Shown piece after piece: positions 20,224 to 46,841 of a stretch of DNA of 64,000 nt. This DNA is from Syntrophales bacterium. GTDB taxonomy: Bacteria > Desulfobacterota > Syntrophia > Syntrophales > UBA2210. A program made the translations under genes and the position numbers. The stretch spans positions 7,410 to 71,409 of the forward strand of contig JALNXD010000015.1 in the NCBI GenBank assembly GCA_023230565.1, read 5' to 3'. The stretch's first letter is position 1. Each line of letters starts with the position of its first letter. The notes beneath the pieces are model-generated. The model was not told the origin of the DNA. It saw only the letters and a list, made by a program, of their open reading frames with translations, and did no database searches.

Positions 20224-21618
20224 TCAATAGTGCTCAAGGCAGCATTGATCGACGACCTTGCCAGCACGGACGAATTGTCCTTTTGTGAGGACCCGTGGCG
20301 CCGATTTCAGACTGACAAGAGGATGATAATAGGGTGATTCGGGCGGCAGGAAACAATCACTGCCTATTCTGTAAAGAAGATCAAGAGGATCCTGACTTCG
20401 AGCGATACCTTTCGATATGCGAATTTCATCAATATAGCCTTTAAAATAATTCCCACCATCCTGATCTACTCCGATTCTTAGATCACGGTTTCCATAAGAA
20501 TAGTAAGAACAAGTCCATGCGCAGATCTGGTGTATGCATTGTCCATTTACATAAAACCGCCATTGGCATTGCATGCGGGTGCTGTCAAGACGATACAGAC
20601 CTGTACGCTCAACTGCCAGATGTACCATTTCATCATGAGGAAGCGGCCATTTAATACTTTTACTAAAACCTACTCCATATTGCGTAAATATCAGACTGAA
20701 ATTGTAAGGCGCATAGAATGCTCTAATTTCGAATCCATAAGGATAATGCTTGTCTGAACGACTCATAAGACATCTTTCCGAACTACTTTCATCCGACCTA
20801 AACCATAGGTCAATTGTATAATTGAATGCGCCTGGTGAATTTAAGCTGCCGATGAAATCAAAATCAGATGAACAGGGAATTCTCAGGCAATCACCCTCTC
20901 CATCAAAATAAATTGAACTGCATCCGTATCGTGCCTTTGCAGTAGAGTGGTGCACATTGCCGTATCTGTAAATTGGATGTCCCTTTAAATCGGTAATAGT
21001 TGTGCTCCCGTCGACATCATCTGAATGAATGAGAAGCTTCGCATGTGAATCGATGATTGGGCTTGTCACATATACGGTTTCGGTATCCTGACCGGGCGGA
21101 TCCGTATCCGCAGCAGTAATGGTGTAGGTCGTGGTACCTGAGGGGTAAATCAGTGCAGTTCCCTGCGGACTGACTAAAGAGCCCTTCCCCGGTTCGTGCT
21201 CCGGACCTAGAGCAGGATCAGCTGGTTGTATATAGCATAATTCGGAATTTCCGGCATTCCAGCTCAGTCTTGCAGGCCCACCGGTCCGTGCATTGCTGCA
21301 CTTTAAACTCACTGCAGGGATAATTTCGATCTCTACACTCTCAATTGCCGTACCACCAGGACCTCGTGCCGTGATTGTATAAAGAGTCGGCTCTCTTACC
21401 GAAACCGTGCATGAACCACTGATATCTACATCGCCGATTCCAGGCTCTATCGAACAAGATGTCGCATTTGACGCGCTCCAGGTCAGTGTCGCCGACCCGC
21501 CAGGCAAAACAGCTGCCGGATAGGCGCTTATGCTTACCAGGGGCATACTTGCAAAAGAAGAAACAGCAATGCATAGAAGTGTTACTACAACCGGGATACC
21601 GAAAACCTTTTTTTTCAT
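20224..21618 (-). CDS. Secreted Ig-like x2 + LamG/ConA-like protein, truncated paralogue of the 1,442-aa surface protein
   Basis: Signal peptide MKKKVFGIPVVVTLLCIAVSSFA and two Ig-like repeats (SATLTWSASNATSCSIEPGIG...TLYTITARGPGGTA). LamG motifs are LIHSDDVDGSTT, FNYTIDLWFRSDE and GYIDEIRISKGIARS. It aligns with residues ~350-770 of ORF 34773..39146 at roughly two-thirds identity by eye. The frame is lost near 20275. Confidence 0.75.
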   Translation of the reverse strand: MKKKVFGIPVVVTLLCIAVSSFASMPLVSISAYPAAVLPGGSATLTWSASNATSCSIEPGIGDVDISGSCTVSVREPTLYTITARGPGGTAIESVEIEIIPAVSLKCSNARTGGPARLSWNAGNSELCYIQPADPALGPEHEPGKGSLVSPQGTALIYPSGTTTYTITAADTDPPGQDTETVYVTSPIIDSHAKLLIHSDDVDGSTTITDLKGHPIYRYGNVHHSTAKARYGCSSIYFDGEGDCLRIPCSSDFDFIGSLNSPGAFNYTIDLWFRSDESSSERCLMSRSDKHYPYGFEIRAFYAPYNFSLIFTQYGVGFSKSIKWPLPHDEMVHLAVERTGLYRLDSTRMQCQWRFYVNGQCIHQICAWTCSYYSYGNRDLRIGVDQDGGNYFKGYIDEIRISKGIARSQDPLDLLYRIGSDCFLPPESPYYHPLVSLKSAPRVLTKGQFVRAGKVVDQCCLEHY

Positions 21619-21834
21619 AATGTCTCCCTTCATTAATAACAATTAAGAATCGTTTCTGCCTGCAGAATCGGATCAGAGCCGCCTCTTCTTCATAATGCCT
21701 CATGGCATTTCAAATTCTTCTCACAGATAATGCAGTGTCGATAATTTCAGCCCACTGGGGGAAGCGGACAATACGCGCCTGCAATCCCTTTCGATCATCA
21801 CCAACAAAAACAAGGGCTCTGCGCAGCGTTTCAC

Positions 21835-22025
21835 AAACAAAAAATGAAATAAGGAGGATTAAGTGAAGAATACTTCGAAGTTTAAGTCGCAGAAGCAATC
21901 TTTAAAAAAAGCAGGATCGAAAACTCCTGGGATTGAAGATCGCTTTATCGTTAGAAACCAGTATATTCATATAAGTCAATTGTCAAGATAAATTACACTG
22001 CAGAAACAGGAATTTCCTATCTCGA
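21835..22025 (-). promoter_or_regulatory. Conserved ~190-bp upstream element, copy A (promoter/5' leader of the short LamG gene)
   Basis: It aligns with 39385..39600 at clearly higher identity than the flanking non-coding DNA. Shared blocks in gene sense are GGAAATTCCTGTTTC, TTGACA, the inverted repeat GCRATCTT...AAGATTGC, and ATTCTTCAC..AATCCTCC. Confidence 0.55.
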
Positions 22026-22061
22026 AGAAGGAAATGAAATTATAAATATGGGCCGCCGCCG

Positions 22062-22375
22062 TCAGGCCGAACATGGAGAACTGCTATGAAGCGTTTCAAT
22101 AACACTTCGCAGGGTAATGGGATCGAAGTCGCGTTCCACTTCGATGGAAAGCAGCGGCCCCATCTAGATGCGAATGCCAGCATACTCGGCTTCCGAGGAG
22201 GCAAGTTCGATAAACCCATGTTGTCCTTGCGGTTCACTGAGTTTTCGGCGCCACGAGTAGAAACTTGCGGTATTGATCTGATGCATCCGAACCAGGGCAA
22301 CCTACTCATCCCGTTTGCCGCCTGCCACTCTACGATGGCCGACCAGTGGGCGGTGCGCTCTTATTGTGTCATGTG
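22062..22375 (-). pseudogene. IS66-family accessory TnpA (orf1)-like remnant, frameshifted with an in-frame stop
   Basis: The minus strand reads RTAHWSAIVEWQAANGMS, then (after a frame change) VALVRMHQINTASFYSWRRKLSEPQGQHGFIELASSEAEYAGIRI, a stop, then MGPLLSIEVERDFDPITLRSVIETLHS. This fits the IS66 orf1 pattern (W..I..W..SG.S; FYxWRRKL; FxEL; final ...L..V...L). Confidence 0.45.
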
Positions 22376-22541
22376 TCATCCTCCAGCTATGAAAATTGGT
22401 TCATGGCTGGAGGGTATAATCGGAATCGCTTCTAAGGGAAAGATGACTTGGTGGTGCGGTTACTGACAACAGTCATTTCCCAATCTGAAGATTTTTAGAA
22501 GTGCAATTTTGTACCCAAAACTGAAGTTCTCCGGTCGGTCC

Positions 22542-23603
22542 CTATTCCGTCCAATCAGGATAGCTATCCGTAGACCATACTTTTCCTACATTGGTGGCGG
22601 GCAATACCAAAGACTCGTCGCTTCCATCCACATTTATTACAAAAAGTTCGGAATAGGCAAAGGGAAGGCCCTGTCGAAATCCCGTATAACAGATCTGCTT
22701 CCCATCAGGGGACCAGCACATCGCTCCTTTAGGAAAGTTACTTTCCGTCACTCTCATGATTTTGCCACTTTTAACCTCCTGTACATAGATTTGATTAAAT
22801 TTATCTCCTGAATTAAATGTAAGGAAAGCAATGAAGCAGCCATCTGGTGATAATGTGGGATATTGTTCTCCTGATACACCGTTTGTAAGCTGAATAATTT
22901 GGGGGTCATCTCCGTTTGCAATAGAATAAATATGTAGCTTTTTTCCTATTAAAGACATACCTTTCACCCAGCCAAATATTAAATTTTGCCCTTCCGGGGT
23001 AAAAGGTGATGGCCCAATGTATAAGGTGTGCCCGGCATGACTGTCATCGAGAATTCTTTTTAAACCCGTGCCGTCTCTATTTATTAAAAAAAGGCTCTCT
23101 ACAAGATCGACATGCATTCCCATATTCGATGCAAAAACTATTTTGTTACCATCCAGGCTGAAGGCAGGATAAGATAGTGTGTCTTTCGTCTTCAATATCT
23201 CTCGAACGAATGAACCTTCTTTATCAAGGATAGTAATGGTTTTGTAATTAGAATAAGGTATGACAGTCTTACAGACAATATATTCCCCATCAGGGGACCA
23301 CCGAGCACTGATGACATTTTCACGCAAGCGCTTTAATTTGCCTTGATTCAGCAGGTAAAGTTTCCTACTACTATCCTTCCCCTCTTCAATCCGATCGGAT
23401 ATGAAAAGGATTTTACCTTTCACAGGTGTCACTTTGTTGATCTCCATTCTCAAAGTTCCCTTTATTTTATCAAGGAAACTATTTTGGGCAAATGCATTTC
23501 CAAAAAACAAGAAGAGTATGCATAATGCGCTGAGCAAATACCGCAGAATTGTCGTCAGTTTTTGTTTATGGTTCAAAATCGACTCCCCATATATTCCGAG
23601 CAT
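22542..23603 (-). CDS. Periplasmic TolB-like beta-propeller (PD40 repeats); candidate immunity protein for the orphan toxin upstream
   Basis: N-terminal signal/anchor (LLSALCILFLFFGNAFA). Repeated SPDG motifs (ARWSPDGEYIV, AFSLDGNKIVF, TLSPDGCFIAF, CWSPDGKQICY). The start overlaps the last 38 nt of the toxin ORF. Confidence 0.6.
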   Translation of the reverse strand: MLGIYGESILNHKQKLTTILRYLLSALCILFLFFGNAFAQNSFLDKIKGTLRMEINKVTPVKGKILFISDRIEEGKDSSRKLYLLNQGKLKRLRENVISARWSPDGEYIVCKTVIPYSNYKTITILDKEGSFVREILKTKDTLSYPAFSLDGNKIVFASNMGMHVDLVESLFLINRDGTGLKRILDDSHAGHTLYIGPSPFTPEGQNLIFGWVKGMSLIGKKLHIYSIANGDDPQIIQLTNGVSGEQYPTLSPDGCFIAFLTFNSGDKFNQIYVQEVKSGKIMRVTESNFPKGAMCWSPDGKQICYTGFRQGLPFAYSELFVINVDGSDESLVLPATNVGKVWSTDSYPDWTE

Positions 23604-25062
23604 CGTAAAGATCGGCAGGTGAAATACGAACGTCTCTTTCTACACCCGGCAATAAATAACCAATGTTACTAAATGTATGCCATTGTAATTCACTGCAGAT
23701 AGCTCCATGATTAAGCGATTGGTTAAACAAGCCAAAAAGACCCCAGATATTATATCTTAATCCCGCAGGACTTAAGATGAGTTCACTTTGAATCCCCGCA
23801 GCTTCTTTGCCACCCAAAAGAGGCCTCACCCAAAATATATCATCATACCTTTTTGCAAAATCAGAAACATTAACGAATTGTCCTCCAGCACTGCCATAGG
23901 ATTCTGACAGACTATTATCTCCTTGATACATTCCTACATGATTAACAGTGCTTGTCGTCGCCCACTTTATCATAAGCGAAATAAATTCACGACCACTTCC
24001 GAAGAGTAGATCGCCTGGTTCACCATATATTTCCAGACCTATTAGAATTTTTTGTTTATGTGCTTCGATGACGGCTCCCGATCTCCGTCTTTCACCAATC
24101 AGAAGATGGAATAGTTTATTGATAACCGAGCCTTCATCATCCATAACAATCCAAGAGTTATACATACCATCGGCACTCGCAGCCTCTTCTGAAGGTGCAT
24201 AGCAGGGATCGTACAGCTGCCATAAACTCTTAAACATTTCCGGACCTTTATATATTTCACCCATCATGTTTGTGGTAAAATCGGTCGGATCAAATTTTCC
24301 ACTTACTGCCGTCAACCCCTCCGGATCAAGATACCGCAAGGGATTGTTCCTCACATAGGCGTAGAGGTTCAATCCATCCACGTAGCCTGCCGGATCGCAC
24401 TGCATGAAGCGGCCCAGTTTTGCAGAGTACATGCGGCTCCGGTAGTACCAGAGGCCCGATTCGCCATCCCAACGCCTGCCTGTGTAGCCGTAGGGGTTAT
24501 CGACTGTACTTTCACCGATCATAACTCCCTGGCCGTCCAAGATCGTCATCAGGCCGAAGGCGGTGTATTCGTAGGTCTCGACGATGTTCCCGTTCTCGTC
24601 AGTCAGGGCCGTCATACTGTACTGCCGGTCTTTGAGGTAGTAATATCGATTTCCGGCATCGTCTTCCATCATGATCGGGTCGTCGATGTAGAGGCCATAG
24701 ACGAAAGACCGCTGGAATTGGCTGTCTTCGTACTCTTCGATCACCTGGCCGCCATCGTAAATATAGGCAGTCGTGTGACCCCCATATGATTTTGTAACCC
24801 GCCTGTTCAGTGCATCGTACGTATATGTCGCAATAACAGATCCTGACAAGCCCTTGACCGCAACCAGCCGATTCGCCCAGTCATACTCGTATCGTTTGGA
24901 CGCATCACGCGTCATGTTACCCCTGTCGTCATAGCTCGGTTCGAAGCCTGCAATGTTTGTATATTCGTTCACTCCATTTGCCGTGCGCGATTCCTGATTT
25001 CCGTTCTGATTCGTGTATGTCCAGTTCCCCTCAGGATCATGCTGCCACTGAATCGTATCCAT
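23566..25062 (-). CDS. Orphan Rhs C-terminal cassette: last ~250 aa of Rhs core + DPxGL + 248-aa permuted papain-like (YiiX/C92, NlpC/P60-superfamily) toxin domain
   Basis: Residues 1-250 are ~90% identical by eye to the end of the main Rhs core, up to PLRYLDPEGL. Similarity ends there. The tip has GEPGDLLFGSG...STVNHVGMYQG followed later by AICSELQW, which is the His-before-Cys order of permuted papain-fold amidases. Confidence 0.75.
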   Translation of the reverse strand: MDTIQWQHDPEGNWTYTNQNGNQESRTANGVNEYTNIAGFEPSYDDRGNMTRDASKRYEYDWANRLVAVKGLSGSVIATYTYDALNRRVTKSYGGHTTAYIYDGGQVIEEYEDSQFQRSFVYGLYIDDPIMMEDDAGNRYYYLKDRQYSMTALTDENGNIVETYEYTAFGLMTILDGQGVMIGESTVDNPYGYTGRRWDGESGLWYYRSRMYSAKLGRFMQCDPAGYVDGLNLYAYVRNNPLRYLDPEGLTAVSGKFDPTDFTTNMMGEIYKGPEMFKSLWQLYDPCYAPSEEAASADGMYNSWIVMDDEGSVINKLFHLLIGERRRSGAVIEAHKQKILIGLEIYGEPGDLLFGSGREFISLMIKWATTSTVNHVGMYQGDNSLSESYGSAGGQFVNVSDFAKRYDDIFWVRPLLGGKEAAGIQSELILSPAGLRYNIWGLFGLFNQSLNHGAICSELQWHTFSNIGYLLPGVERDVRISPADLYDARNIWGVDFEP

Positions 25063-25121
25063 CGTACCTTGCTGTTCAATGATCAGACGGTTTAAATCGT
25101 CATATTCATATTGCTTTTCAA

Positions 25122-25964
25122 TTAGTTCTGACGTGAGAGAAGGTAAGGTAAGGTAGTAATGGCGCGTTCAATAGTTTCTGAAAATATGTTGCCTCTTCCA
25201 GTATAGTCTGTTTCCATGGCATAAAGGGTGGTATTGTTAATGTCCGTATAGATCCGATTCCCTTCCATACCACAATCATTATAAGAAAGGCTTTTTTCTA
25301 TCCCATTGCCCAATGTCATGGCGGCAACGCGGCCGTTCAGGTTGTAGGTAAAGTCGGCAATACTGACTTCGGACTGATCCTTGATCGAATCGGGAAGGTT
25401 AAGGCCGTTGTATGTGCGGTGAACCACAAATCCTCCCGTATCGGGGTATACGAGGTCTTCCGGATTCCCGTTCGTATCATAAAATTTTTCAACCCGTTTC
25501 CCGTCCTGCATCTCAGCCGTCACTTCATTGAATGCGTTGTACTCGAATAACACGGAATGCGTTGCATTGCCTTCATTGTAATCATCGGCAACAATCATTC
25601 TGGAAAGCGAATCGTATTCAAAATGCCGGACTTCCTGATTATTCGCATATACATCCGTAAGTCGATTCATATCGTCATACCATTTAGTTATCATGCTCCC
25701 GTCGGGACGTGTTTCCTGAACTATATTACCTGCCTCATCATAGTCGTACGTTGTCACATCGCCTGCCGCATCTTCCACGCCCACGGGACGGTTCAGGGCG
25801 TCGTAATAGGTGCGCGTCTCATTGCCCCGGAGATCTATCACGGCGGTTACGTTGCCATTCGCATCGTAGCGCCATGCCGTTGTGTGTTCCAATGCATCGA
25901 CGGTCCTGATACGGCGTTTGGCCATATGTAAAAATGTTTTATCACTCTCCCTTGTTAGTGTCAT
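25122..25964 (-). pseudogene. 5' portion of the same orphan Rhs cassette (YD repeats), separated from 23566..25062 by a frameshift
   Basis: AKRRIRTVDALEHTTAWRYDANGN...YYDALNRPVGVEDAAGDVTTYDYDEAGNIVQETRPDG is near-identical to main Rhs residues around KRRIKTIDALEQ. Reading ~25063..25140 in another frame restores LIEKQYEYDDLNRLIIEQQGTMDTIQWQ. Confidence 0.75.
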
Positions 25965-26166
25965 TTGTCTCGACGATAAGATGAAAATGGTTGTTCATGA
26001 GGACGTAGCCATGAAGTGACACGTCGAAGTTTTTCAGGCTTGCACCAAGAATATCGAGAAATTTGTAGCGATCAACATCATCCTGAAAGATGAGCCTGCG
26101 CTCATTTCCCCGGCAGGTTACATGATAAAAGGCACCGGGGTATTCTATGCGAATCGCTCGTGCCAT
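25942..26166 (-). pseudogene. Y1 (HUH) transposase fragment, IS200-like/REP-associated type, N-terminal 74 aa only
   Basis: MARAIRIEYPGAFYHVTCRGNERRLIF...NNHFHLIVET carries the HUH motif. The catalytic Tyr region is absent. The 3' end is cut by the start of the orphan Rhs cassette. Confidence 0.65.
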
Positions 26167-26216
26167 AGTGTCCGTATATACACCCCCTTCTCAGTCAATA
26201 GACAACGACTGTCCCC

Positions 26217-26462
26217 TTACTGACTCCTTTCATTAGCTGCCAGGCTGCCTTCCTCAATGCCGGGATCGACAATGAGGTGAATATGATTCGTCATCAGGCA
26301 ATAGGCATAAACCCGGCAGCCCAGCTTCTCTTTCCATTCCCCCAGATTGTCAAGGTAATACAAATAGTCGTCGTCGGAAACAAAGACAACCTGCCTGTTG
26401 TGCCCTCGCTGTATTATGTGGTGTGGGTATCCGCTTATGACAATACGGGATTTTCTGGACAT
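26217..26462 (-). pseudogene. Second Y1 (HUH) transposase fragment, N-terminal 81 aa only
   Basis: SGYPHHIIQRGHNRQVVF...TNHIHLIVDPG carries the HUH motif. It is a divergent paralogue of the neighbouring fragment and is truncated before the Tyr motif. Confidence 0.65.
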
Positions 26463-26510
26463 GGCACCTTCATTATCACAGCAACTTCTATTTCTAAGAA
26501 TAAATAAATC

Positions 26511-26558
26511 TGTCCCCTTTTACTCTCCCTTTTACTCTCCTGTCCCCTTTTACTCTCC
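26511..26558. repeat. Tandem repeat TGTCCCCTTTTACTCTCC / CTTTTACTCTCC / TGTCCCCTTTTACTCTCC
   Basis: Read directly. A related single copy TGTCCCCTTACTGACTCC is at 26210..26227. Each lies ~45 bp upstream (gene sense) of one Y1 fragment start. Confidence 0.7.
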
Positions 26559-26810
26559 GAGAAGAGCAAAAATTATCCCCCAAATGCCTGACAAAAGGAG
26601 TATGCTTGAAAACACTTTCAAAACGAATGGCGGCATCCAATTGAAATCGACACCGAATCGATTGCTCCATGAAACTATCCTAGCTTTCCATAGTTCAGCA
26701 CCTTTCCTAAAACATACCCAATACCATCCAGCGAATACACAGATGAAGTAAGCTATTGCAAACACTAAAGGCGGCGTACTCATAAGTCTCGACGATGTTT
26801 CCGTTCTCAT
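26550..26810 (-). CDS. Small two-TM protein, possible remnant immunity gene of a deleted toxin tip
   Basis: Hydrophobic helices FAIAYFICVFAGWYWVCF and SILLLSGIWGIIFALLG. It sits where the third Rhs fragment loses homology. The real start is unclear and it may be an N-terminally truncated remnant. Confidence 0.3.
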   Translation of the reverse strand: MRTETSSRLMSTPPLVFAIAYFICVFAGWYWVCFRKGAELWKARIVSWSNRFGVDFNWMPPFVLKVFSSILLLSGIWGIIFALLGE

Positions 26811-27480
26811 CGGTCAGGGCCGTCACACTGTACTGCCGATCTTTGAGGTAGTAGTAACGGTTCCCGGCATTGTCTTCCATCATGATCGGGTCATCGATGT
26901 AGAGGCCATAGACAAAGAACCGCTGGAACTGACCGTTCTTGTACTCTGCGATCACCTGGCCCCCGTCGTAAACGTAAGTAATTATTTGACCGGTATTTTC
27001 AAGAAACTTTGAAACCAGCCTGTTCAGGGCATCGTACCTGTATGTCGCAATGACGGATCCTGACAAGTCCTTGACCGCAACCAGCCGATTCGCCCAGTCG
27101 TACTCGTAGGTCTTAGCGCCATCTGAAGTCATGTTGCCCCTTGCGTCATAGCCCGGGGTCATGCACGTAACATTTGAATATTCGTTTACCTCGTTCGGAA
27201 CCCGCTCCTCCGGACTGCCGTTCTGATTCGCATAGGCCCAGTTTTCCACAGGATCATGCTGCCATTGCACGGTATCTGCAGTTCCTTTCTGTTCAAATGT
27301 CAGACGATTCAGGTCGTTTTAGGTCTTTTCGATCCGCCTGCCGTCCTGCGTTTCGGCAATGACCCTGTGGAGCGGGTCGTATTCGAATGCCGCGGCATGG
27401 GTCTGACGGCCTTCATTGGCATTGGCGGCGCCCGTCATACGGGAGAGCGCATCGTACTGGCAAAAAGCAAGACCTGACCC
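26765..27480 (-). pseudogene. Third Rhs core fragment (internally deleted, 3'-truncated, contains a stop)
   Basis: ORF 26707..27270 reads QWQHDPVENW...YEYDWANRLVAVKDLSGSVIATYRYDALNR...YYYLKDRQYSVTALTDENGNIVETYEYAAF, then homology stops. Upstream, 27270..27480 encodes YDALSRM...FEYDPLHRVIAETQDGRRIEK, a stop, then NDLNRLTFEQ. This implies a deletion relative to the main gene. Confidence 0.7.
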
Positions 27481-27866
27481 TAACTGCTCTCCGGCTTCGG
27501 TTTTTTTCTGAAAATCGTCGCCCTGTTGCCAGCAAACGCAGGATTGACAACCCGCTTACGCCAGTTTTTATCAAACCGCGAATCCTGCGTAAATTGAGAG
27601 ACAAGATCCGAAAATCCCTCCATTTCTTCATTAACCTCGACATTCTGACCACTTTCAAGCGTAATTTCAAAACAGATCAGATCAACTGTTCCAAGATCTC
27701 TTTTGAATGCCGAAATTTTTTTTACTTCAACATAAGGAATCGAAACTATGATATTACCATTTTGAGAAATGGCGAACATCTCTCCCTTAACTTGAATGCA
27801 TGTTTGACTCAATTTGAAAACCCTACTAGCAAAGTGGTATAGTTTGCTTATCAATTTCGTTAGCAT
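27480..27866 (-). CDS. Candidate cognate immunity protein of the main Rhs toxin (128 aa, no recognised family)
   Basis: It is the first ORF after the Rhs stop (18-nt gap), on the same strand, and AT-rich like the toxin tip. The call is positional only. It has no TM segment. Confidence 0.45.
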   Translation of the reverse strand: MLTKLISKLYHFASRVFKLSQTCIQVKGEMFAISQNGNIIVSIPYVEVKKISAFKRDLGTVDLICFEITLESGQNVEVNEEMEGFSDLVSQFTQDSRFDKNWRKRVVNPAFAGNRATIFRKKPKPESS

Positions 27867-27884
27867 AGAATGACTTTCATAAAT

Positions 27885-30800
27885 CTAAGGGTTGTTGATA
27901 AAATCGTAAATCGCTATTCCAAGTTTTCTACCTAAATAACCGCCCGCAGTTGCCCCAGCAACACTACCAGCTGCAGTTCCTGCAACTGGCGTGACAAAAC
28001 TACCCCCAATCGCACCAACAATTCCACCACCTACACAACCCAAAAGCCCAATGCTTACTTCAGCAAGTTCTCGATAAGGATTCGGCGAAGCGTATACTTG
28101 ATAAGCATCGTATCCTACACCTGCTATCAGAAGAACCGGACCAGCAATTCTAAATGCACCCCCTACACTGTTTACAATATTATTGCTGATATTCGCCGAC
28201 CCCAGAGAGTTCGGATGGGGGCCAAGGCCCGGACGGATGGCCTCAATTGGCCTGCGAACTAAGGGTGGTGTTTGTTCTCGAATTGCCTGTTTGAGTGCTG
28301 TCCGTCCTAATGAGTCATTTGGATCAAGCAAAGCTACTCCAGTTTCATATCGAGCTCTTGCAAGGCCGGCATCGCTGATTTGCTGTCCAATTGAAATTGC
28401 AATATCGGCAACTGCATCAAGAGCTATATTTCCAGTTAATGATTCTCTATACTCATCATTCCAATATAAAGATTGATATTCATTCACCGCCGTCAACCCC
28501 TCCGGATCAAGATACCGCAAGGGATTGTTCCTCACGTAGGCATAGAGGTTCAGTCCGTCCGCATAGCCTGCGGGGTCGCGCTGCATGAAGCGGCCCAGTT
28601 TTGCCGAGTACATGCGGTTCCGGTAGTACCAGAGGCCCGATTCGCCATCCCAGCGCCTGCCCGTGTAGCCGTAGGGATTGCCGACTGTACTTTCAATGAT
28701 CGTACCTCCCTGGCCATCAAGGATCGTCATCAGGCCGAAGGCGGTGTATTCGTAGGTCTCGACGATGTTCCCGTTCTCATCAGTCAGGGCCGTGATGCTG
28801 TACTGCCGGTCTTTAAGGTAGTAGTAACGGTTCCCGGCATTATCTTCCATCATGATCGGGTCATCGATATAAATGCCATAAACGAAGGACTGCCGGAACT
28901 GGCCGTCTTCGTATTCCTCGATCACCTGGCCGCCGTTGTAAATGTAGGCGGTCGTGTGACCCCCATATGATTTTGTAACCCGCCTGTTCAGTGCATCGTA
29001 CGTGTATGTCGCAATGGTCGATCCATACAAGGTGTTTACCTTGATCAGTCTGTTGGCCCAGTCATACTCGTATCGTTTCGACGCATCCCGTGTCATGTTA
29101 CCCCTGTCGTCATAGGTTGGAGTTGCGGCCGTTATGCTCGTATATTCATTTACTGCGTTTGCCGTGCGCGATTCCTGATTTCCGTTCTGATTCGTGTATG
29201 TCCAGTTCCCCTCAGGATCATGCTGCCACTGAATCGTATCCATCGTACCTTGCTGTTCAATGATCAGACGGTTTAAGTCGTCATATTCATATTGTTTTTC
29301 GTATTGTTCTATCCCAATGAAGGGTATTGTGGAAATAGCACGTTCAATAGCTTCTGAAAGTATGTTGCCCATGCCGTCATAGGTTGTTTCCATACTGTAA
29401 AGGGTGGTGGTGTCAATGTCCGCATAGATCCGATTCCCTTCCATGCCCCGGTCATTATAGGAAAGACTCTTTTCTATCCCGTTGCCCAATGTCATGGCGG
29501 CAACGCGGCCGTTCAGGTTGTAGGTAAAGCCGGCGATACTGTTTTGGGACTGATCCTTGATTGAATCGGGAAGGTTAAGGCCGTTGTATGTGCGGTGAAC
29601 CACAAATCCTCCCGTATCGGGGTATACGAGGTCTTCCGGATTCCCGTTCGCGTCATAAAATTTTTCAACCCGTTTCCCGTCCTGCACCTCGGCCGTCACT
29701 TCATTGAATGCATTGTACTCGAACAATACGGAATGCGTTGCATTGCCTTCATTGTAATCATCGGCAACAATCATTCTGGAAAGCGAATCGTATTCAAAAT
29801 GCCGGGCTTCCTGATTATTCGCATATACATCCGTAAGTCGATTCATATCGTCATACCATTTAGTGATCGTGCTCTCGTCGGGACGTGTTTCCTGAACTAT
29901 ATTACCTGCCTCATCATAGTCGTACGTTGTCACGTCGCCTGCCGCATCTTCCACTCCCACGGGACGGTTCAGGGCATCGTAATAGGTGCGCGTTTCGCTA
30001 CCTCCAGGATCGATCACTGATTTCAGATTACCGTTTGCATCATACGTGTACACTGTCGTTTGCTCTAATGCGTCTATCGTCTTGATCCGGCGTTTGGCCA
30101 AATCATAAAAATGTTTTGTCACTCCGCCCTCCTGGTCCGTCTCCATAACCAGATTGCCAACCCAATCGTATGCGTAACTGCTGCAATTACCGGCAGGATC
30201 GCATTCGAAAATCTTTCGGCCTAGTGCATCGTATTCAAACAGCCACTCTCGTCCTTCGGCATCTTTTCGCTTTTTCAGCAGATTGCGTGAATCATATTCA
30301 TAGGACTTCTCGGCCATCTTTATCCCATCGCTGCCGTACATTTCGACTTTTGTTTTGTTTCCGTTCTTGTCATATTGATTTACTGTGTAATTTCCCTTGG
30401 GTTCGATGAATTCAACGAGTCTGCCCAGCGGATCATACCGGTATTGATAGGTCCGAGCGCCGGTGACGCCATAGTCGAGAGTCTTGGCAACAGGACGGTT
30501 CAGGTTATCATATTCATAGTGCGTTACAACAGGAATGTCGCTGCTCGCATCCTTCAAGGTTCGTATTTCATCGGTCAGGTTGCCGTTGGCATCGTAGAGA
30601 TAGCTGGTGGTGGCGCCTTCCGCATCCGTAATGCTTGTCTTGCGGTTGGCCGCATCATAGGTGTAACTCGTCCTGTTGCCCCTTTTATCTTCTTTCGCTT
30701 CGAGGTTCCCATTTCCATCGTAACTATAGAGGATGGAGTTCTGGTAAGGATCCATCTCCTCGACGAGCCGGTTCATCCCGTCATAGAAGTATCGGAATAC

Positions 30801-33800
30801 GTTGCCGTTTTTATCTTTTTTTCTGATCATGTTGCCCGCCTCGTCGTAGTCGAAGTACTCGCTGCTTCCGAGGGAATCGATTTTTTCGATTACTTCGGCC
30901 CCAGAAACGATGTCCCGGGCCGTATCGTAGATGTTTTCCGTAACGGCACCGTCTGCTGTCACGGTTCTGATCAGTTTCCGGTTCGCGTCATAGTCAAAGA
31001 TCGTTTCATTGCCCAACGCATCGATCACCGCCGTTTTTTGGTTGTAATTATTATACTCGTAGTTCGTCATATACCCAGCGGGGTCTTTTTTGCTTATCAG
31101 ATTGCCATACTCATCGTAACTGAAATATGTCACTTTTCCATTCTTGTCCCTATAGAAGTAAATATTTCCGGAAGAGTTGAACGCTTTATATATCGAGGTG
31201 TATTCATATCCGTAATCGATATTGTAATTATTACCGTATGAATCGTAGGAAAGAGTCGTTATGTTGCCGAGCGCATCGGTTATTATCGTCGGGCTTCCTT
31301 TGTCATTGTAGGCAAGCGATGTGGTGATACCCTTCGGATCGGTAATGGAAGTTGGCTTGTTGATCGCGGCGTCGTATACATAGGTCCAGGCTTCCCCCAG
31401 CGCATTGGTTTTTGAAGTCATGTTACGGTGTGCGTCGTACGTAAAGACAGTAGTGTTGCCGTTCGCATCGGTATGAGAGATCACATTGTGGTTGACGTCA
31501 TAGTCGCTGCACTCGATTGTCCCGTTTTCATTGGTTACCCGGATCACGTCATGCGAGCCGTTCCAGAAAATCTTACGATAATAGCCCTTTTCATTCCAGG
31601 TTTCGGCATAACGGTTGAACCGGCTATATTGAAAATTGAAAGTATTTCCTTTGGCATTGGTATGGTAAGCAACCGTGTCGTTCTTATAGTATCCGATTTC
31701 CAGAAAGTCACCCTTCGGTAGGATGTATTTAATCATATTGTGGTTGTTCGAAGTATTTTCCTGATTCATTAGATACTGATATTCGGTCGTGTTCTCTTCC
31801 AGATCAACAAAAAATCGCAGATCGTCGCCATTACCGTAGGCATCCACGTTATAGTAGTAATAACAAGATCGCCCCGTGAAATCGGTCACGCATTCGATCT
31901 TTCCCCGGGGATTGTAGGCAAAGGTCAATGTGCGGTTAAGTGAATCCTTTATTGCCGATAACCGGTCCGGATGCGCCGCATTGTGATATTCAAAAGACAG
32001 TGAATTGCCATAAGGGTCTTCCTTCTTCACCAACAACCCATCGGCGCTGAACCGATACTTAATCATCGATTTAAAGGCTATCTCAAAGGTACTGTCAACA
32101 TTTTTTACGAGCCTGAAGGTAGTGCCGGCCGGGTATGTATAGCTTCCATCAATAGCCACGGTGCAATAGTGGGGTGCAAGATCCTCATCAAGATACACGA
32201 CATCGCCGTTAACCAGCAGAATCAACGTATCCGCATGATTCCACGCCCACCCGTAACCAAATGGTCCGTTGTAGATCAGCTTACTCATATATTTTCTTTT
32301 CACGGAGAGATCAAAACCACGGGATTTGATTTGAATGTCGGGTTGCTCGTCCTGGTAGAACTCGCCGGTAACGAGATCGACGGGATCGCCCCAGGGCGAC
32401 TGCAGGGCCTCCACGTTTTGATTTACTATATCGATTTTCGCAATATTTGTGCAATCCTCAATCCCGTGTATATTCAGCATATTTTCATGCAAATCTAAAA
32501 TTTCCATATCATTATAAAAGATGCCTTCACTGCTGACGATTTCAACTGGCTCCGCACCGTAATTCGAATCATAGAAATATTCATTTCCCAATAGATCAGT
32601 ATAATTATCAATATAGTATAAATTATCTCCGGCTCCACCGCCGTTATCTCCCCCGAAATTGTAGGCATCGTAATCAGGTCCATTACTTATAAAAAGATAT
32701 CTGTCAATCCCATTGCAAAAAACAGTCTGCACGGGAGTTATAACTGTGGCCCCTCCTTGTAATTCCGAAATTACCGCATCAATGGCAGCCATTTCTGCCC
32801 CGGTACGGTCGGAACCTGTATTTTTATGATAAAAATTCGCAATACTACTCAATTGATTGACATCCGTTAGCTCAACAACCTGAATCCCCTGTTCACGCGC
32901 AAGCATGAGACCTTTTACCGTGCTCAGACTCGGTGTATCCTGCCAATCCTCAAAAATTCGAGCTTCATTATACGAGGAGGGATACATTACGAGGTCCCGG
33001 AAAAAACGATTGAGAGGATCATCCCAGCAAATCTTTTTATAATCCATTATTTTTATAGGCCATCCGGTATTTCCATCATTGTATTCGGCTAATTCAGCCT
33101 TAAAAAAATTCCCAAAGGATTGGGTATCTATACTCCAGCGGGGGTGTACAAGAAATTTTGACTCGCTATCGGAAGAAAATGAATCGGGAGACACATAGAT
33201 CATGGTTGGAGAAAAAGACCAGTTAATTCTTCCATGGAGAAATCCGGTCGATTTCATGACTGCTTCCCGATGCCGCATGAGATATGTCTCCGCCAGAATC
33301 GCCCCTGCGGGCCCCAAAAATGCTTCCCGCATACTCCCCGGCAATGCACCGGAGTCGGACGCCTGAAGGGAGGAAACTGTTTCAAGAGCTTGTTTTAATT
33401 TTGTGACAGTTTTTTCAGATGCGGCGAGCGGGTCGAAGGCCAACGTCATAAAAGTTCCGGCTTTTCTTGACGGCCTGGGACAAAATGCATTGTTATTGTG
33501 ATCAGGCCAATTACAGCCCGGGACAAAAGATTCATTGGATGAAATAGGCTGCCCTTCGGTATCTTGTATATCACCATCAACCATCAGAACAGGTTTGAGC
33601 TGGGCTACTGCCGATATATCGCCACCACTGAAGGCTGCCTGAATTCCTGAGATTCCTCCATACCATGTGATCAGATCTGCATCATTTTGAGTCGCAGGGA
33701 TAAAATCAAGACAAAGGCGCTTCCCGGCAATTTCCGGAAGGTAGAAGATTTGTTGCACTAGAGGGTTCGTGTAACCGGTATCACTCTGGCGATATATGGA

Positions 33801-34688
33801 GAACGTTATGTGGGCACGATCATCATTCCCGATAACCTGCAAATCTTCTTTATTCAAATTATAATTGAAGGAAAAAGGTAAATTACCCGGCAGGATAGAT
33901 GACAGTCGTTTTTCCATATTTTCTTCATAACCTACATCGGCCAATGTTTTACCGGGATGATTCGAGTTCAGGTAAGTCTGAATCTGTTCTTCGTAACGTT
34001 CAAGGGCATTCTTTTGATAATCAACCTCGCCGGCTTTTACCGACCAGTCGCTGTTAAACCCCAGATATCCTTTAAAATCGAAATTGACGTCTATTGGTAT
34101 TTTCCAGCCTGAAGGGGTGGCCCAGACGTTTTGGTCCTGTGTCTCTATCAGTGTTACCGGGAAAAGGTCGATTCCTTGCCCATACCGGATTCTTTTATAC
34201 CATGGCGCCAGGGGAACCCAGCCTTTTCCCTTGTCTCCGCCGTCATCAATCCCCCGATAATTTACCAGTGAAACCCAGGCAATTGCATACGTGCCGCAAT
34301 AGACAACTGAGCCGCTTCCATCAAGAAAGGTCATTTTTACATAACGAGCCGGAATATTTGATATACGAAAAAGAGTTATAATGAGCGAGGAAATATCCCA
34401 ACTGTTACCCCTCTTAGTGAGATATGTCCCGTAAGCACCCAACCGCGAATAATCATATCCATCTTCATATTCTATATTTTCATAGACCCAGTTATAAATC
34501 TTGACGGGATCATTTTCCAATTCCGCAGCCAGCCCTTCAAGTTCCGGGGTAAATTGGCACTCTACGGTTTCCTGAGTATCGGCAGCATCAGGGGGCAAAA
34601 AGGCGAAGACTATTGACGGCATGAGACATATTACTAATAGAAGCGCCACGATTGATACCATTTGTGCATGCAGAAAAAGTTTCCTCAT
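27885..34688 (-). CDS. Rhs/YD-repeat polymorphic toxin, 2,267 aa, Sec signal peptide, degenerate transglutaminase-like N-domain, glycine-zipper C-terminal tip
   Basis: Signal peptide MRKLFLHAQMVSIVALLLVICLMPSIVFA. A transglutaminase-like core lies at ~aa 58-165. The Rhs plug GDPVDLVTGEF (~32350..32405) is followed by many YD repeats (YxYDxxGN/R) and PLRYLDPEGL ending at 28494. The 202-aa tip (27888..28493) ends in GLLGCVGGGIVGAIGGSFVTPVAGTAAGSVAGATAGGYLG. Confidence 0.9.
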   Translation of the reverse strand: MRKLFLHAQMVSIVALLLVICLMPSIVFAFLPPDAADTQETVECQFTPELEGLAAELENDPVKIYNWVYENIEYEDGYDYSRLGAYGTYLTKRGNSWDISSLIITLFRISNIPARYVKMTFLDGSGSVVYCGTYAIAWVSLVNYRGIDDGGDKGKGWVPLAPWYKRIRYGQGIDLFPVTLIETQDQNVWATPSGWKIPIDVNFDFKGYLGFNSDWSVKAGEVDYQKNALERYEEQIQTYLNSNHPGKTLADVGYEENMEKRLSSILPGNLPFSFNYNLNKEDLQVIGNDDRAHITFSIYRQSDTGYTNPLVQQIFYLPEIAGKRLCLDFIPATQNDADLITWYGGISGIQAAFSGGDISAVAQLKPVLMVDGDIQDTEGQPISSNESFVPGCNWPDHNNNAFCPRPSRKAGTFMTLAFDPLAASEKTVTKLKQALETVSSLQASDSGALPGSMREAFLGPAGAILAETYLMRHREAVMKSTGFLHGRINWSFSPTMIYVSPDSFSSDSESKFLVHPRWSIDTQSFGNFFKAELAEYNDGNTGWPIKIMDYKKICWDDPLNRFFRDLVMYPSSYNEARIFEDWQDTPSLSTVKGLMLAREQGIQVVELTDVNQLSSIANFYHKNTGSDRTGAEMAAIDAVISELQGGATVITPVQTVFCNGIDRYLFISNGPDYDAYNFGGDNGGGAGDNLYYIDNYTDLLGNEYFYDSNYGAEPVEIVSSEGIFYNDMEILDLHENMLNIHGIEDCTNIAKIDIVNQNVEALQSPWGDPVDLVTGEFYQDEQPDIQIKSRGFDLSVKRKYMSKLIYNGPFGYGWAWNHADTLILLVNGDVVYLDEDLAPHYCTVAIDGSYTYPAGTTFRLVKNVDSTFEIAFKSMIKYRFSADGLLVKKEDPYGNSLSFEYHNAAHPDRLSAIKDSLNRTLTFAYNPRGKIECVTDFTGRSCYYYYNVDAYGNGDDLRFFVDLEENTTEYQYLMNQENTSNNHNMIKYILPKGDFLEIGYYKNDTVAYHTNAKGNTFNFQYSRFNRYAETWNEKGYYRKIFWNGSHDVIRVTNENGTIECSDYDVNHNVISHTDANGNTTVFTYDAHRNMTSKTNALGEAWTYVYDAAINKPTSITDPKGITTSLAYNDKGSPTIITDALGNITTLSYDSYGNNYNIDYGYEYTSIYKAFNSSGNIYFYRDKNGKVTYFSYDEYGNLISKKDPAGYMTNYEYNNYNQKTAVIDALGNETIFDYDANRKLIRTVTADGAVTENIYDTARDIVSGAEVIEKIDSLGSSEYFDYDEAGNMIRKKDKNGNVFRYFYDGMNRLVEEMDPYQNSILYSYDGNGNLEAKEDKRGNRTSYTYDAANRKTSITDAEGATTSYLYDANGNLTDEIRTLKDASSDIPVVTHYEYDNLNRPVAKTLDYGVTGARTYQYRYDPLGRLVEFIEPKGNYTVNQYDKNGNKTKVEMYGSDGIKMAEKSYEYDSRNLLKKRKDAEGREWLFEYDALGRKIFECDPAGNCSSYAYDWVGNLVMETDQEGGVTKHFYDLAKRRIKTIDALEQTTVYTYDANGNLKSVIDPGGSETRTYYDALNRPVGVEDAAGDVTTYDYDEAGNIVQETRPDESTITKWYDDMNRLTDVYANNQEARHFEYDSLSRMIVADDYNEGNATHSVLFEYNAFNEVTAEVQDGKRVEKFYDANGNPEDLVYPDTGGFVVHRTYNGLNLPDSIKDQSQNSIAGFTYNLNGRVAAMTLGNGIEKSLSYNDRGMEGNRIYADIDTTTLYSMETTYDGMGNILSEAIERAISTIPFIGIEQYEKQYEYDDLNRLIIEQQGTMDTIQWQHDPEGNWTYTNQNGNQESRTANAVNEYTSITAATPTYDDRGNMTRDASKRYEYDWANRLIKVNTLYGSTIATYTYDALNRRVTKSYGGHTTAYIYNGGQVIEEYEDGQFRQSFVYGIYIDDPIMMEDNAGNRYYYLKDRQYSITALTDENGNIVETYEYTAFGLMTILDGQGGTIIESTVGNPYGYTGRRWDGESGLWYYRNRMYSAKLGRFMQRDPAGYADGLNLYAYVRNNPLRYLDPEGLTAVNEYQSLYWNDEYRESLTGNIALDAVADIAISIGQQISDAGLARARYETGVALLDPNDSLGRTALKQAIREQTPPLVRRPIEAIRPGLGPHPNSLGSANISNNIVNSVGGAFRIAGPVLLIAGVGYDAYQVYASPNPYRELAEVSIGLLGCVGGGIVGAIGGSFVTPVAGTAAGSVAGATAGGYLGRKLGIAIYDFINNP

Positions 34689-34772: not shown

Positions 34773-37700
34773 TTAATCAATTGCCGACAAAATGGCTTCG
34801 AGGCAAAGGCTCGTCACATAAGAGTCATTGTTCCAACTGCCGTTTAAATCCTGATGAGCGATCAAGTAATTGCAGGCATAATTTTTTTCATAATGATCGA
34901 GACCGATGATCCATGAATATAAAGACAATAGCTCGTTATCACTTAATGGAGGATCGGGATTCATCATGGCGCGTAATATGTCTGCCGGTCCCTCTGTTAC
35001 TAAATATTTAATCCACAAAAGCACTGCTGCGGTATCAATCAAAGAGGTCGCAGAGTTTATTGCCTCCTCGCTGCAATAGTATATCTCCGTAGCGGTTACT
35101 TCGTGCTTTTGATTTGCTATCCATGCATCAATACCTGTTAACGCCGAGAGCACCACATTTCCTATCAGCCCTGAAACCAGCGAAGAAACATATACACTGG
35201 GGGCATCGCCGGGCATCCAGCCGTAACAGTCGGGTTCGGTGCTTTCCAATATATTTTGGACCATATTGAACCGGAAATAATCAGTATGTTCAATATCCCG
35301 TGAAGTACACTTAAGGGCCATCGATGCCAGAACCGTATCGATCGGATCCGGGGCAAAATGTATCTGCGTTCCCCATACCCGGGTCGGTATAGGATCGGAA
35401 TCTGGAATATGGACATTATGCAGCTGACCCATTGACTGCAATCGATAGACAAAGTCATCTACATTCTGTCCGTATTTGTGGAGTGTTAAAATCTTCCTTG
35501 CCAAATAATCGTTGTTATCTGCAGGAGTTCCCCTTAAGTAGAGGAGGGCCTGGCGCAGGGCAGGGCTGATTGACCCAGCCGCATTGAATGCATTTAGCGC
35601 CTGACTGGTACTGAGCAGCCTTCTGCTCTCTTTTTCATCCCAGTATCCCTTCTTATTCTGAGTCATCTCCAGATAGGCCTTTGCTCTTGCGATTGCCTCA
35701 TTACATGTCTGTGCGGGGCTGGTTGCGTCTATAGAAACACTGACCAGTTCCGATACAGGGCTTTCTATGCCATTATCGGTTACATAGGTAGCTCCATACC
35801 AATACGTGACACCAGCCATGGCAGTCCCATCAGAAAAGCTGGTTCCGGCTAAAGGGTTCTGAGATATTCGCAGACGTGATGGTGGCGCATAGCCGCCTTG
35901 ATGGCTCTTGTTCAGGATTTCACGGTCGAAATCGCTTATGCATCGGTAGATATAATAGCCGGTAACAGTAGCGCCAGTGTAATCCTCAGGAGTCGTCCAA
36001 GTAAGGTCGACCTGGTGTGTTTGTTCGTTGTATATGGACGCAATGATGGCAGCCAGCCACTCCGGCTGTCTTTCACCAACCAAATATATTTCGCTCTTGA
36101 TATTTTCCCTGTTTCCGGCTGCATCCAACGCAAAAAACTGAAGATTGGTGCACTTATCAATCACCAGTTGAATAGGTCCTTTAAAGGCAATGGTGTTCGG
36201 GGCACCCTCATAGGGCGGATCGCCGTCTGTAGAATAGTAGATTGTGGCGTCTTCTGAACAGGTCAGTTCGACAGTCAATGGAGACGCATATTCTCCCGAG
36301 AGCATACTTGCGGTGGTGACGGGTACGGTCGTATCAGCTGTAAATACAAAAACATAGGTGTTCGTACTTCCGGAACTGTCTTCTACATCGAGGGCATAGT
36401 GATATTCCTTCCCGTCTACGGGGGATGCTATGGTTAATATAACCGCACTTTCTGTAACCGTTGCTTGATCTGTAATATCGATGCCTACTTCGTCGCGGAG
36501 CTTTACCGAGGAAATTCCCGCACCGCCGCCAGGGAGATTGATTGTGAACGTTATCTCTCCCGACCCGCCATCGTCAGTTTTTACAAGCGATCCATATCCC
36601 GGAGTGCTGTTGCTCAAGGTAACAGGTACGGTGATGCTGTCGGATGCATTGCCGTATTGGCCGATCGATGAAATGGTGTAGGTTGTGGTTCCTTGCGGCG
36701 TTAAGACCACCGAGCCTGTTCCATTGGGTCCGACAGTCCCCACACCCTGATCGATGGTAGTTGAGGTAGCATTGCCGGATGACCGCCATACTAGAGTGGC
36801 AGATTCTCCTTTAGCAAGGACCTGCGGCACAGCTTCAAGACTCACAACCGGATGATAATGAGGTGATTCGGGCGGCAGAAAACAGTTATTTCCTACCCTA
36901 TAGAGAAGATCAAATGGATCCTGGCTTCGCGCGATTCCTTTAGATATGCGAATTTCATCGATATAGCCTTTAAAATAATTCCCCCCGAATTGGTCTACAC
37001 CAATTCTTAGATAGCGATCTTGGTAGCTAAGTGGGGAAACGGTTGTATAGGCATATGTTTGATATAGAATAGAACCATTGAAATAAATCGTCAAAAGACA
37101 CATCATTCTGTAATAATCAAGGCGGTACAAGCCTCTGCGTTCAATTGTCAAATGGCCAAATCCACTATTCTCAACAGAATAGTCTGAAGGCACAGATGAC
37201 ATTCCTATCGAAACTGAATATTGATAAAATCTAATATAGATACTACCTGTAGCAGGATTATAAGCGGCTGTGATATCAAATCCATCGGGATAGTATCGAT
37301 TCCCTTTGCTTATAAGACACTTCTCTGAGGTACCTTCATCAGAGCGAAACCATAAATCAATTGTGTAATTGAAGGCACTCGGAGAATTTAAATTGCCAAT
37401 AAAATCAAAGTCGGATGAATAAGGAATTCTAAGGCAATCTCCCTGTCCATCAAGATAAAGAGAACTATGTCCGTATCGTGCTTTGGTAGTCGAGTGATGT
37501 ACATCGCCATACCTGTAAACAGAATGCCCTTTTAGGTCATGTATGGTCGTGCTGCCTTCAATGTCATCGGAATGGATGAGAAGTTTTGTGAAACCATCGA
37601 GAAAAGGTTCTGATACGTAGACTGTTTCGGAATCTTGTGATGGCGGATTCGTACCTGTTGCCGAAACAGTGAAGTACTCAGGGTATTCTAGATAAACGAG

Positions 37701-39101: not shown

Positions 39102-39384
39102 GTGGGAACATCCTCCCTTGAAAAGTTTGAAACATTCCAATTTCACTTCAGACCTATAGAATTTGCATACTGCCCCTTAATCATTTACTTCATTTCATAT
39201 GGCAGATTCATACCAGGCATGTCATTGTATTGACGAAGCTTTCGAAATAAATGATGACATCAGATTCGATGCAGATAACCCGGAATCGGATAAGGGAGTC
39301 ATCTCCCTCAAAAATTAAAATTATAGGCCTGACGTAGCAGGCTCAAATCCTTTCTATTGAAGCGGATTTTTTGCACTGTGCAAT

Positions 39385-45130: not shown

Positions 45131-45156
45131 GGCGGGATATACTCCCGCCTTTTTTT
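45131..45156 (+). terminator. Rho-independent terminator
   Basis: GGCGGGA-TATAC-TCCCGCC followed by TTTTTTT. It sits between the convergent csp and gspE ends and touches the gspE stop codon. Confidence 0.65.
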
Positions 45157-46840: not shown

Positions 46841-46841
46841 G

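Follow-up and report, generated by a model that had tools for sequence, protein, structure and literature searches.

Rhs orphan toxin–immunity cassettes carrying papain-superfamily toxins are known, and so are propeller-like immunity proteins. Here we describe a 64,000-nucleotide stretch of a Syntrophales bacterium genome (contig JALNXD010000015.1, positions 7,410 to 71,409; hereafter the window, whose own numbering is used throughout), in which an orphan Rhs cassette ends in a permuted papain-like domain (the tip) and is followed directly by a gene for an exported PD40 beta-propeller. In the searchable literature we found no description of a YiiX-lineage tip combined with a full PD40 propeller: searches on PD40 immunity proteins and on Peptidase_C92 with Rhs gave nothing relevant. 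To an earlier interpretation made from the DNA letters alone (the sequence-only reading), the pairing had likewise appeared undescribed.

The closest analogue is the Tse1/Tsi1 pair of the Pseudomonas aeruginosa type VI secretion system (T6SS), where the immunity protein against an NlpC/P60 amidase is a partial propeller located in the periplasm (PMC3391265). Tse1 is a peptidoglycan amidase with the canonical Cys-then-His order, whereas the tip is permuted, and Tsi1 is a three-sheet fragment resembling DPP-IV propellers (PMC3391265), whereas the window encodes a full PD40 propeller. No Tsi1 chain stands among the best 60 (E<=0.00095) of the 167 PDB matches (E<=10) obtained with the propeller profile. 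In Tsi1, in PliI-Ah and, by prediction, in X-Tfi, the enzyme is blocked by an inserted loop (PMC10933484; Tsi1 structure PMC3391265), and X-Tfi XAC2610 has a topology similar to that of Tsi1 (PMC10933484). A full bladed propeller is predicted for PefE, a T6SS immunity protein of Proteus mirabilis whose specificity regions are located on a single face (PMC5714391); its partner PefD is a PAAR effector of unknown activity. The 2012 census of Zhang et al. lists the canonical Tox-NlpC/P60 domain, states that beta-propellers were not found among immunity proteins and leaves YaeF unmentioned (PMC3482391). The sequence-only reading had taken a full propeller for an uncommon immunity architecture; propeller-like immunity proteins are rare, yet they have precedents in Tsi1 (partial), X-Tfi and PefE (predicted).

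On the enzyme side, the permuted His...Cys core of the tip recurs in two interbacterial T6SS toxins, Tox-Act1 and TseH. Tox-Act1 is a permuted phospholipase effector that acts from the periplasm and whose toxicity needs both the His and the Cys (PMC12994826). It is sister to DUF4105 and TseH corresponds to DUF6695, whereas the tip groups with YiiX/C92; both toxins are delivered by T6SS whereas the tip is delivered by Rhs. Moreover, the immunity protein of Tox-Act1 is membrane-associated, and a propeller is never mentioned in that study, which places the YiiX clade in lipid metabolism and not among the toxins (PMC12994826). The best sequence and structure matches of the tip are YiiX (2if6) and BcPPNE (3kw0), which share its order of His, Glu, Tyr and Cys (PMC3142127). 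These are small, standalone proteins, whereas the tip is fused to delivery modules, stays below threshold in Pfam and NCBIfam and carries an extra helix motif.

We consider it likely that the two genes form an orphan Rhs toxin–immunity cassette, made of a permuted cysteine hydrolase tip and a propeller immunity protein (Table 1). The cassette itself is a true Rhs orphan. Its 498-residue open reading frame (ORF) contains RHS repeats (PF05593, E=1.1e-5; Pfam) and matches the Rhs-associated core TIGR03696 (E=5.5e-23, residues 178-250; NCBIfam), the match ending at residue 250, which is also the last residue of DPEGL (residues 246-250); the remaining 248 residues, at 23569-24312, are the tip. In addition, the DNA at 24305-25947 shares 88% identity, over 1652 nt, with 28486-30124 of the full-length rhs gene upstream, a homology that runs only 7 nt past the junction. 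The orphan reading frame is interrupted between 25062 and 25122, so that the ORF begins with a Met inside the Rhs core.

Table 1. Features of the toxin–propeller cassette, of its Rhs surroundings and of the homologous loci (aa, amino acids; nt, nucleotides; coordinates without a locus name refer to the window)
Feature	Position	Strand	Basis or remark
PD40 beta-propeller gene, putative immunity gene	22542..23603	-	PD40; 353 aa from ATG 23603 or 344 aa from TTG 23576
Export signal of the propeller: basic n-region, hydrophobic core, AFA/Q	23487..23603	-	sequence, hydropathy
Shine-Dalgarno GGGGAG, 6-nt spacer and TTG, within the last toxin codons	23574..23590	-	sequence; P0001 annotation
Orphan Rhs cassette ORF, 498 aa: last ~250 aa of the Rhs core and 248-aa tip	23566..25062	-	ORF list, RHS_repeat, Rhs_assc_core
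Catalytic domain, tip residues 62-248, divergent YaeF/YiiX (Peptidase_C92-like) permuted papain fold	23569..24129	-	profiles, AF2, Foldseek
Predicted catalytic Cys, tip Cys206 / ORF Cys456, motif ICSE	23695..23697	-	invariant in all alignments; aligned to ICSEF of 3kw0
Conserved Tyr, tip Tyr187, fourth catalytic residue of the NlpC/P60 signature	23752..23754	-	invariant in A1, A2, A4; role per PMC3142127
Predicted third triad residue, tip Glu137	23902..23904	-	nearly invariant; counterpart of Glu64 of BcPPNE and YiiX (PMC3142127)
Predicted catalytic His, tip His125 / ORF His375	23938..23940	-	invariant in A1, A2, A4; aligned to SHTG His of 3kw0
Tip residues 1-61, non-conserved linker ending in VMDDEG	24130..24312	-	AF2 pLDDT, alignment to P0122
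PLRYLDPEGL, a PxxxxDPxGL junction (Rhs C-terminal autocleavage motif)	24313..24342	-	translation, end of TIGR03696
Frame-disrupted upstream part of the same orphan Rhs cassette	25122..25964	-	RHS_repeat E=3.8e-25; inside the 88%-identical block
Full-length Rhs toxin, 2267 aa, with its own different tip; recombination partner of the orphan	27885..34688	-	domain matches, DNA homology
P0122	L002		ORF with 38-nt overlap, family motif VKGRIVFNSDR, propeller cut by contig end
P0128	L003		346-aa PD40 gene, 3 nt past toxin stop
P0130	L004, L005		333-aa PD40 gene, 3 nt past toxin stop
P0123, signal-peptide enzyme	L006		334-aa PD40 gene, 2 nt past toxin stop
Giant protein and propeller, Omnitrophota GCA_043798215.1	L132, 2-3766 and 3782-4864		giant of at least 1254 aa (contig end)
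Giant protein and propeller, Omnitrophota GCA_043798215.1	L133, 1-5982 and 6001-7083		giant of 3260 aa

The pairing is not confined to the window: an exported PD40 propeller follows the permuted papain-fold domain as a conserved two-gene module, whatever delivers the domain. The propeller gene lies directly downstream of the tip in all seven distinct loci found with this tip subfamily, i.e., the window and six others (L002, L003, L004, L006, L132 and L133; L005, a second assembly of L004, is not counted), and in the homologous loci, L005 included, a PD40 gene of 333-360 residues starts between -38 and +19 nt from the toxin stop codon. N-terminal to the tip, the architectures are Rhs (two loci), a signal peptide (one), 630-residue modules (two) and giant proteins (two). 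L002 reproduces the layout of the window, with the end of an Rhs core and a glycine-rich tip, a small ORF, an orphan 'NNPVLLIDPEGL' with its C92 tip, and the propeller. The giant proteins came from a reverse search starting with the 360-residue propellers P0056 and P0114 of an Omnitrophota metagenome-assembled genome (MAG), each of which is encoded 15-18 nt downstream of a giant. In both giants the tip subfamily profile recognises the final ~240 residues (1e-17 to 3.5e-17), P0128 and P0130 share homology with the final 650 residues, and the N-terminal parts gave no confident Pfam domain. As negative background, 120 generic PD40 loci (~830 kb) were collected by a search with the propeller alignment (A7; 22-41% identical), and none of them contains a C92-like ORF, while the standalone C92 genes P0125, P0127 and P0132 have no adjacent propeller. 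Co-occurrence of tip and PD40 genes across genomes, which the sequence-only reading had put forward as a point to examine, is borne out by these counts. The presence of the pair in Syntrophales, in Omnitrophota and on several unassigned metagenome contigs suggests a module open to exchange, not a peculiarity of one site.

Some further features of these loci are worth recording. The two Omnitrophota giants are paralogous (82% identical over their common part) and each is followed by a lipobox PD40 propeller, the L133 pair adjoining rpmF-plsX-fabH-fabD. L004 (1-5900) offers a mobile-island context: genes for two phage-type integrases and a DNA cytosine methylase, together with a helix-turn-helix gene, precede the P0130 pair.

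Regarding the tip, profile matches, conserved residues and AlphaFold2 (AF2) and Foldseek results place it in the YaeF/YiiX (C92) lineage of permuted papain-like enzymes, as a divergent relative under the curated cut-offs. Taken directly, the tip has weak matches in the databases: Pfam Peptidase_C92 (PF05708) remains sub-threshold (12 bits against a gathering score of 27, E=0.23), and the YaeF model PRK11479 matches residues 348-443 of the ORF (E=1.4e-9, 37.5 bits against a cut-off of 279; NCBIfam). A profile of the five-member tip subfamily finds PDB 3kw0 (E=7.2e-7), where its NHVG falls on SHTG and its ICSE on ICSE. An hhalign comparison of the tip subfamily with 14 C92 proteins reaches 98.9% probability (E=3e-17). 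On the other hand, the tip gave no matches to the PDB by phmmer nor in a word-index homologue search, and its alignment A6 recovered no relatives from JGI metagenomes or, by pattern scan, from 185,579 species genomes. An exhaustive phmmer search of 1.84 billion representative proteins returned 14 at E<=0.001, all C92-like relatives, namely four close ones (P0122, P0123, P0128 and P0130), small standalone proteins and two proteins with tandem YiiX-like domains; Pfam Peptidase_C92 is matched by 7 of the 11 aligned members, these being the small standalone relatives. The tip subfamily is further marked by an additional N-terminal helix motif, xFxGxxxR[ST]DEEI. The identification of the tip as a permuted papain-fold domain of YiiX/C92 type, made earlier without database searches, therefore holds on the YaeF, 3kw0 and hhalign results.

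Structure prediction points the same way. From a shallow 19-sequence alignment that includes true C92 proteins, AF2 modelled the tip with a pLDDT of 78.6 and a pTM of 0.72 (above 85 over residues 80-248, below 50 over residues 1-52), while the tip sequence alone gave a pLDDT of 32. With this model, Foldseek ranked 3kw0 and 2if6 first (probability 1.0, target-normalised TM 0.60-0.62), followed by canonical NlpC/P60 and PLAAT/HRASLS enzymes as partial matches only; in the viral library, it matched phage C92 proteins and poxvirus OPG091 (vaccinia G6R-type). A canonical NlpC/P60 amidase was also considered for the tip and is rejected, since in the tip the Cys comes after the His and matches to canonical members are partial. 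Of the phage families, PHROG 1128 (phrog_1128, 'enoyl-CoA hydratase/carnithine racemase-like') matches the tip and its homologues over the catalytic region at E=2e-8 to 3e-4; its name is probably misleading for the C92-like part of that family.

The motifs and the 248-residue length quoted by the sequence-only reading were all found in the translation, with GEPGD at ORF residue 347, NHVGM at 374 and HGAICSE at 452. The His-then-Cys permuted order that it had recognised holds as well, the starts of GEPGD and HGAICSE being 105 residues apart (it had estimated ~110) and the His and Cys 81 residues apart. By alignment, the predicted catalytic order in the tip is His125, Glu137, Tyr187 and Cys206, and the DNA codes for His, Glu and Cys at the positions given in Table 1. 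G100, D101, H125, Y187, C206, S207, E208 and P232 are invariant in the tip alignments and E137 is nearly so. BcPPNE has the corresponding permuted tetrad (Cys154, His49, Glu64 and Tyr127), and likewise YiiX (PMC3142127). N-terminal to the catalytic domain, the end of the linker seems to retain a trace of its assembly: VMDDEG is aligned to LIDPEGL of P0122, the longer VMDDEGSVINK pairs with 'LIDPEGLCAVNK' of that protein, and VMDDEG looks like a degenerate relic of a second DPEGL Rhs/tip junction. If so, the cassette would have been built by an earlier recombination and the first ~55 residues of the tip would be leftover linker. In the same alignment, NSWIVMDDEGS (24130-24147, minus strand) stands against 'NNPVLLIDPEGL' of P0122.

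The downstream gene (22542-23603) encodes PD40 repeats (PF07676, E=4.5e-18) with an additional DPPIV_N match (Pfam). Five [WFLY][STC][PL][DE][GD] motifs, at residues 102, 148, 201, 251 and 297, together with N- and C-terminal strands, suggest a propeller of about six PD40 blades. Its size and its 38-nt overlap with the toxin ORF had been given for the 353-residue ORF, and these values are right for the ATG start; the true start is probably TTG 23576, with an overlap of 11 nt, because a Shine-Dalgarno sequence (GGGGAG) lies 6 nt upstream and a public MAG protein, P0001 (Syntrophales, 344 residues, 100% identical), begins at this codon. Whichever start is used, the two genes are translationally coupled. 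The propeller had also been described as signal-anchored, a view that we revise: its N-terminus looks, from its composition, like a cleavable Sec signal peptide (AFA/Q), and anchoring elements occur in homologues, as transmembrane (TM) anchors (L003, L004 and L006) or as the lipoboxes LFGC/LSGC (L132 and L133), while P0003 has a signal peptide. One or another of these N-terminal elements (signal peptide, TM anchor or lipobox) is present in 9 of the 9 propellers examined.

The neighbour is an exported PD40 propeller, in keeping with the earlier label 'TolB-like', but it is not a TolB orthologue. TolB of the Tol-Pal system is also a periplasmic PD40 propeller, and PDB TolB chains match the propeller profile at ~1e-35; however, TolB has an N-terminal domain and belongs to a tol-pal operon, and the window propeller has neither. 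Indeed, the TolB model TIGR02800 gives 69.4 bits against a cut-off of 343 and covers profile positions 181-406, i.e., the propeller part only, and Pfam finds no match to TolB_N in the protein. A TolB paralogue was therefore rejected, given the missing N-domain, the score far under the cut-off and a neighbourhood of Rhs and unrelated genes instead of a tol-pal operon.

For the domain a toxin role is proposed because it stands directly after PLRYLDPEGL, because it recurs in a second Rhs locus (L002) and because it forms the ends of the Omnitrophota giants; the gene context likewise suggests an immunity role for the propeller. Under this proposal, the tip would be released after the PxxxxDPxGL junction and, using His125, Glu137, Tyr187 and Cys206, would cleave an acyl, amide or ester bond in the target-cell envelope, on which it would act from the periplasmic side. 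The exported propeller, with its predicted six or so blades, would reside in the producer periplasm, bind the toxin and occlude its active-site cleft. Homologous recombination across the 1.65-kb common core could put the orphan cassette in place of the tip now carried by the full-length rhs gene. Toxicity, the periplasmic site of action, inhibition by direct binding and a lipid substrate are what we infer from these comparisons. As for the substrate, analogy somewhat favours a lipid or lipoprotein acyl bond over peptidoglycan, because permuted NlpC/P60 enzymes, YiiX and BcPPNE among them, have a hydrophobic S1 pocket and YiiX contains a bound fatty acid (PMC3142127), and because of the LRAT/PLAAT enzymes and the phospholipase Tox-Act1.

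Several observations weigh against this proposal. On the tip, the Pfam C92 model reaches only E=0.23, the YaeF match is far under its equivalog cut-off and stops before the Cys, and the composition of the AF2 alignment may bias the model toward a C92 fold; moreover, the triad Glu is replaced by Gln in one homologue, and the two Omnitrophota copies have no aligned Tyr. On the pairing, P0003, a propeller relative at 33% identity, has no upstream toxin, and another relative, P0019, follows an HGD-D gene with no adjacent toxin; for these two, orphan immunity genes and unrelated PD40 proteins are both conceivable. Over the seven pairs, sequence identities among the toxins show no co-variation with those among the propellers (Spearman -0.29, not significant; a single paralogue pair accounts for the Pearson value, and the L002 propeller is truncated). 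Finally, the cassette has no N-terminal delivery part and its upstream core is frame-shifted, so that it may be silent.

Other readings of the pair have to be weighed against an immunity function. The propeller may be an accessory factor rather than an inhibitor, i.e., a chaperone or activator of the toxin or a substrate-binding or shielding partner, in which case linkage would reflect co-function. Strict pairing is compatible with any obligate partner, and TolB-type propellers bind lipoproteins, e.g., Pal. Disruption of pefE, a predicted propeller gene, abolishes PefD activity, and the Tli immunity protein activates its Tle lipase (bioRxiv 10.1101/2023.03.28.534661). However, PefE itself confers immunity (PMC5714391), propellers with their own Sec, lipobox or TM signals would stay in the producer envelope whereas an Rhs tip would be encapsulated and exported separately, and the position immediately 3' of a tip is normally taken by the immunity gene in polymorphic toxin systems (PMC3482391), which makes an accessory role improbable in our view. 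A broader possibility, which we regard as unlikely, is a cross-phylum class whose YiiX-type enzyme would strip the acyl chains of envelope lipoproteins or lipids, or transfer them, and whose propeller would serve as a top-face decoy or substrate shield instead of a simple active-site plug.

In another account, the C92 enzyme and the propeller would form a housekeeping periplasmic module for envelope remodelling, e.g., lipid or lipoprotein processing, that was captured by Rhs proteins and giants. The plain signal-peptide enzyme P0123, whose pair adjoins a TPR protein, the rpmF-plsX-fabH-fabD neighbourhood of L133 and the general view of the YiiX clade as one of lipid metabolism (PMC12994826) fit such an origin; yet a housekeeping module would be expected to be widespread and vertically conserved, whereas the tip family is very rare (the 14 phmmer relatives, and none in the species genomes scanned), occurs twice at Rhs tips and also forms orphan-like modules amid integrases and a methylase, a mobile-element context. 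We thus hold this account to be highly improbable. Much the same can be said of a decaying relic, in which both ORFs would be functionless remnants in the present genome: the reading frame of the upstream Rhs core is disrupted, its neighbours are fragments of IS200/Y1 transposases and an Rhs fragment that lacks a tip, and a scan for promoters and terminators yielded nothing beyond chance. Against decay, both ORFs are intact (498 and 353 codons) with the catalytic residues, a good Shine-Dalgarno sequence and the export signal kept, and Rhs loci typically maintain orphan cassettes as a silent reserve with the immunity genes retained (PMC3482391). A toxin–immunity cassette accordingly remains the reading that we prefer.

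If this reading is true, the YiiX/C92 clade, whose members have hitherto been seen as lipid-metabolism enzymes of unknown physiological role, would join the interbacterial toxin domains. A toxic phenotype and a specific inhibitor would then provide a handle on the long-sought substrate of YiiX-type enzymes. A full PD40 propeller would be established as an immunity fold, of which the examples reported after the 2012 census are partial or only predicted, and, should the acyl-stripping reading be true, the target class would be one so far undocumented for Rhs toxins.

The cassette belongs to a larger Rhs island. The full-length Rhs toxin has a signal/TM segment, a transglutaminase-like Transglut_core domain, DUF6531 and RHS repeats, and contains neither PAAR nor VgrG; no T6SS genes were seen among the ORFs scanned near the cassette. 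About 10 kb upstream of this rhs gene and on the same strand lie genes for T2SSE (type II secretion ATPase, E=4e-142) and the GspD secretin (45155-49079, minus strand). This nearby type II secretion system (T2SS) may be the export route for a signal-peptide Rhs, and a signal/TM Rhs without PAAR or VgrG at ~10 kb from a T2SS fits the Sec/T2SS class of Rhs toxins (PMC3482391). The tip of the full-length Rhs (27885-28500), after its own DPEGL, is Gly/Ala-rich, hydrophobic and glycine-zipper-like, and is possibly a membrane-inserting toxin; the resident Rhs tip of L002 is also Gly-rich and of the same type. A 128-residue ORF that follows (27480-27866, minus strand), with no Pfam match, is probably its immunity gene.

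Two truncated IS200/Y1-type transposase ORFs (25942-26166 and 26217-26462, minus strand; PF01797, E=1.8e-6 each) sit between the fragments of the Rhs orphans and suggest that the island was rearranged by a mobile element. A second orphan Rhs fragment (26707-27270, minus strand), 76% identical to 28738-29281 of the full-length rhs gene, ends short of the DPEGL junction and is a tipless, decayed cassette. The promoter and terminator scan covered 22000-27900 and found nothing exceeding shuffled expectation. The island is flanked by large secreted proteins with Laminin_G_3/concanavalin-like domains (20224-21642 and 34773-39146, both on the minus strand), the larger of which (34773-39146) also contains CHB_HEX_C and Fn3_assoc domains and has a PilX match just under its cut-off.

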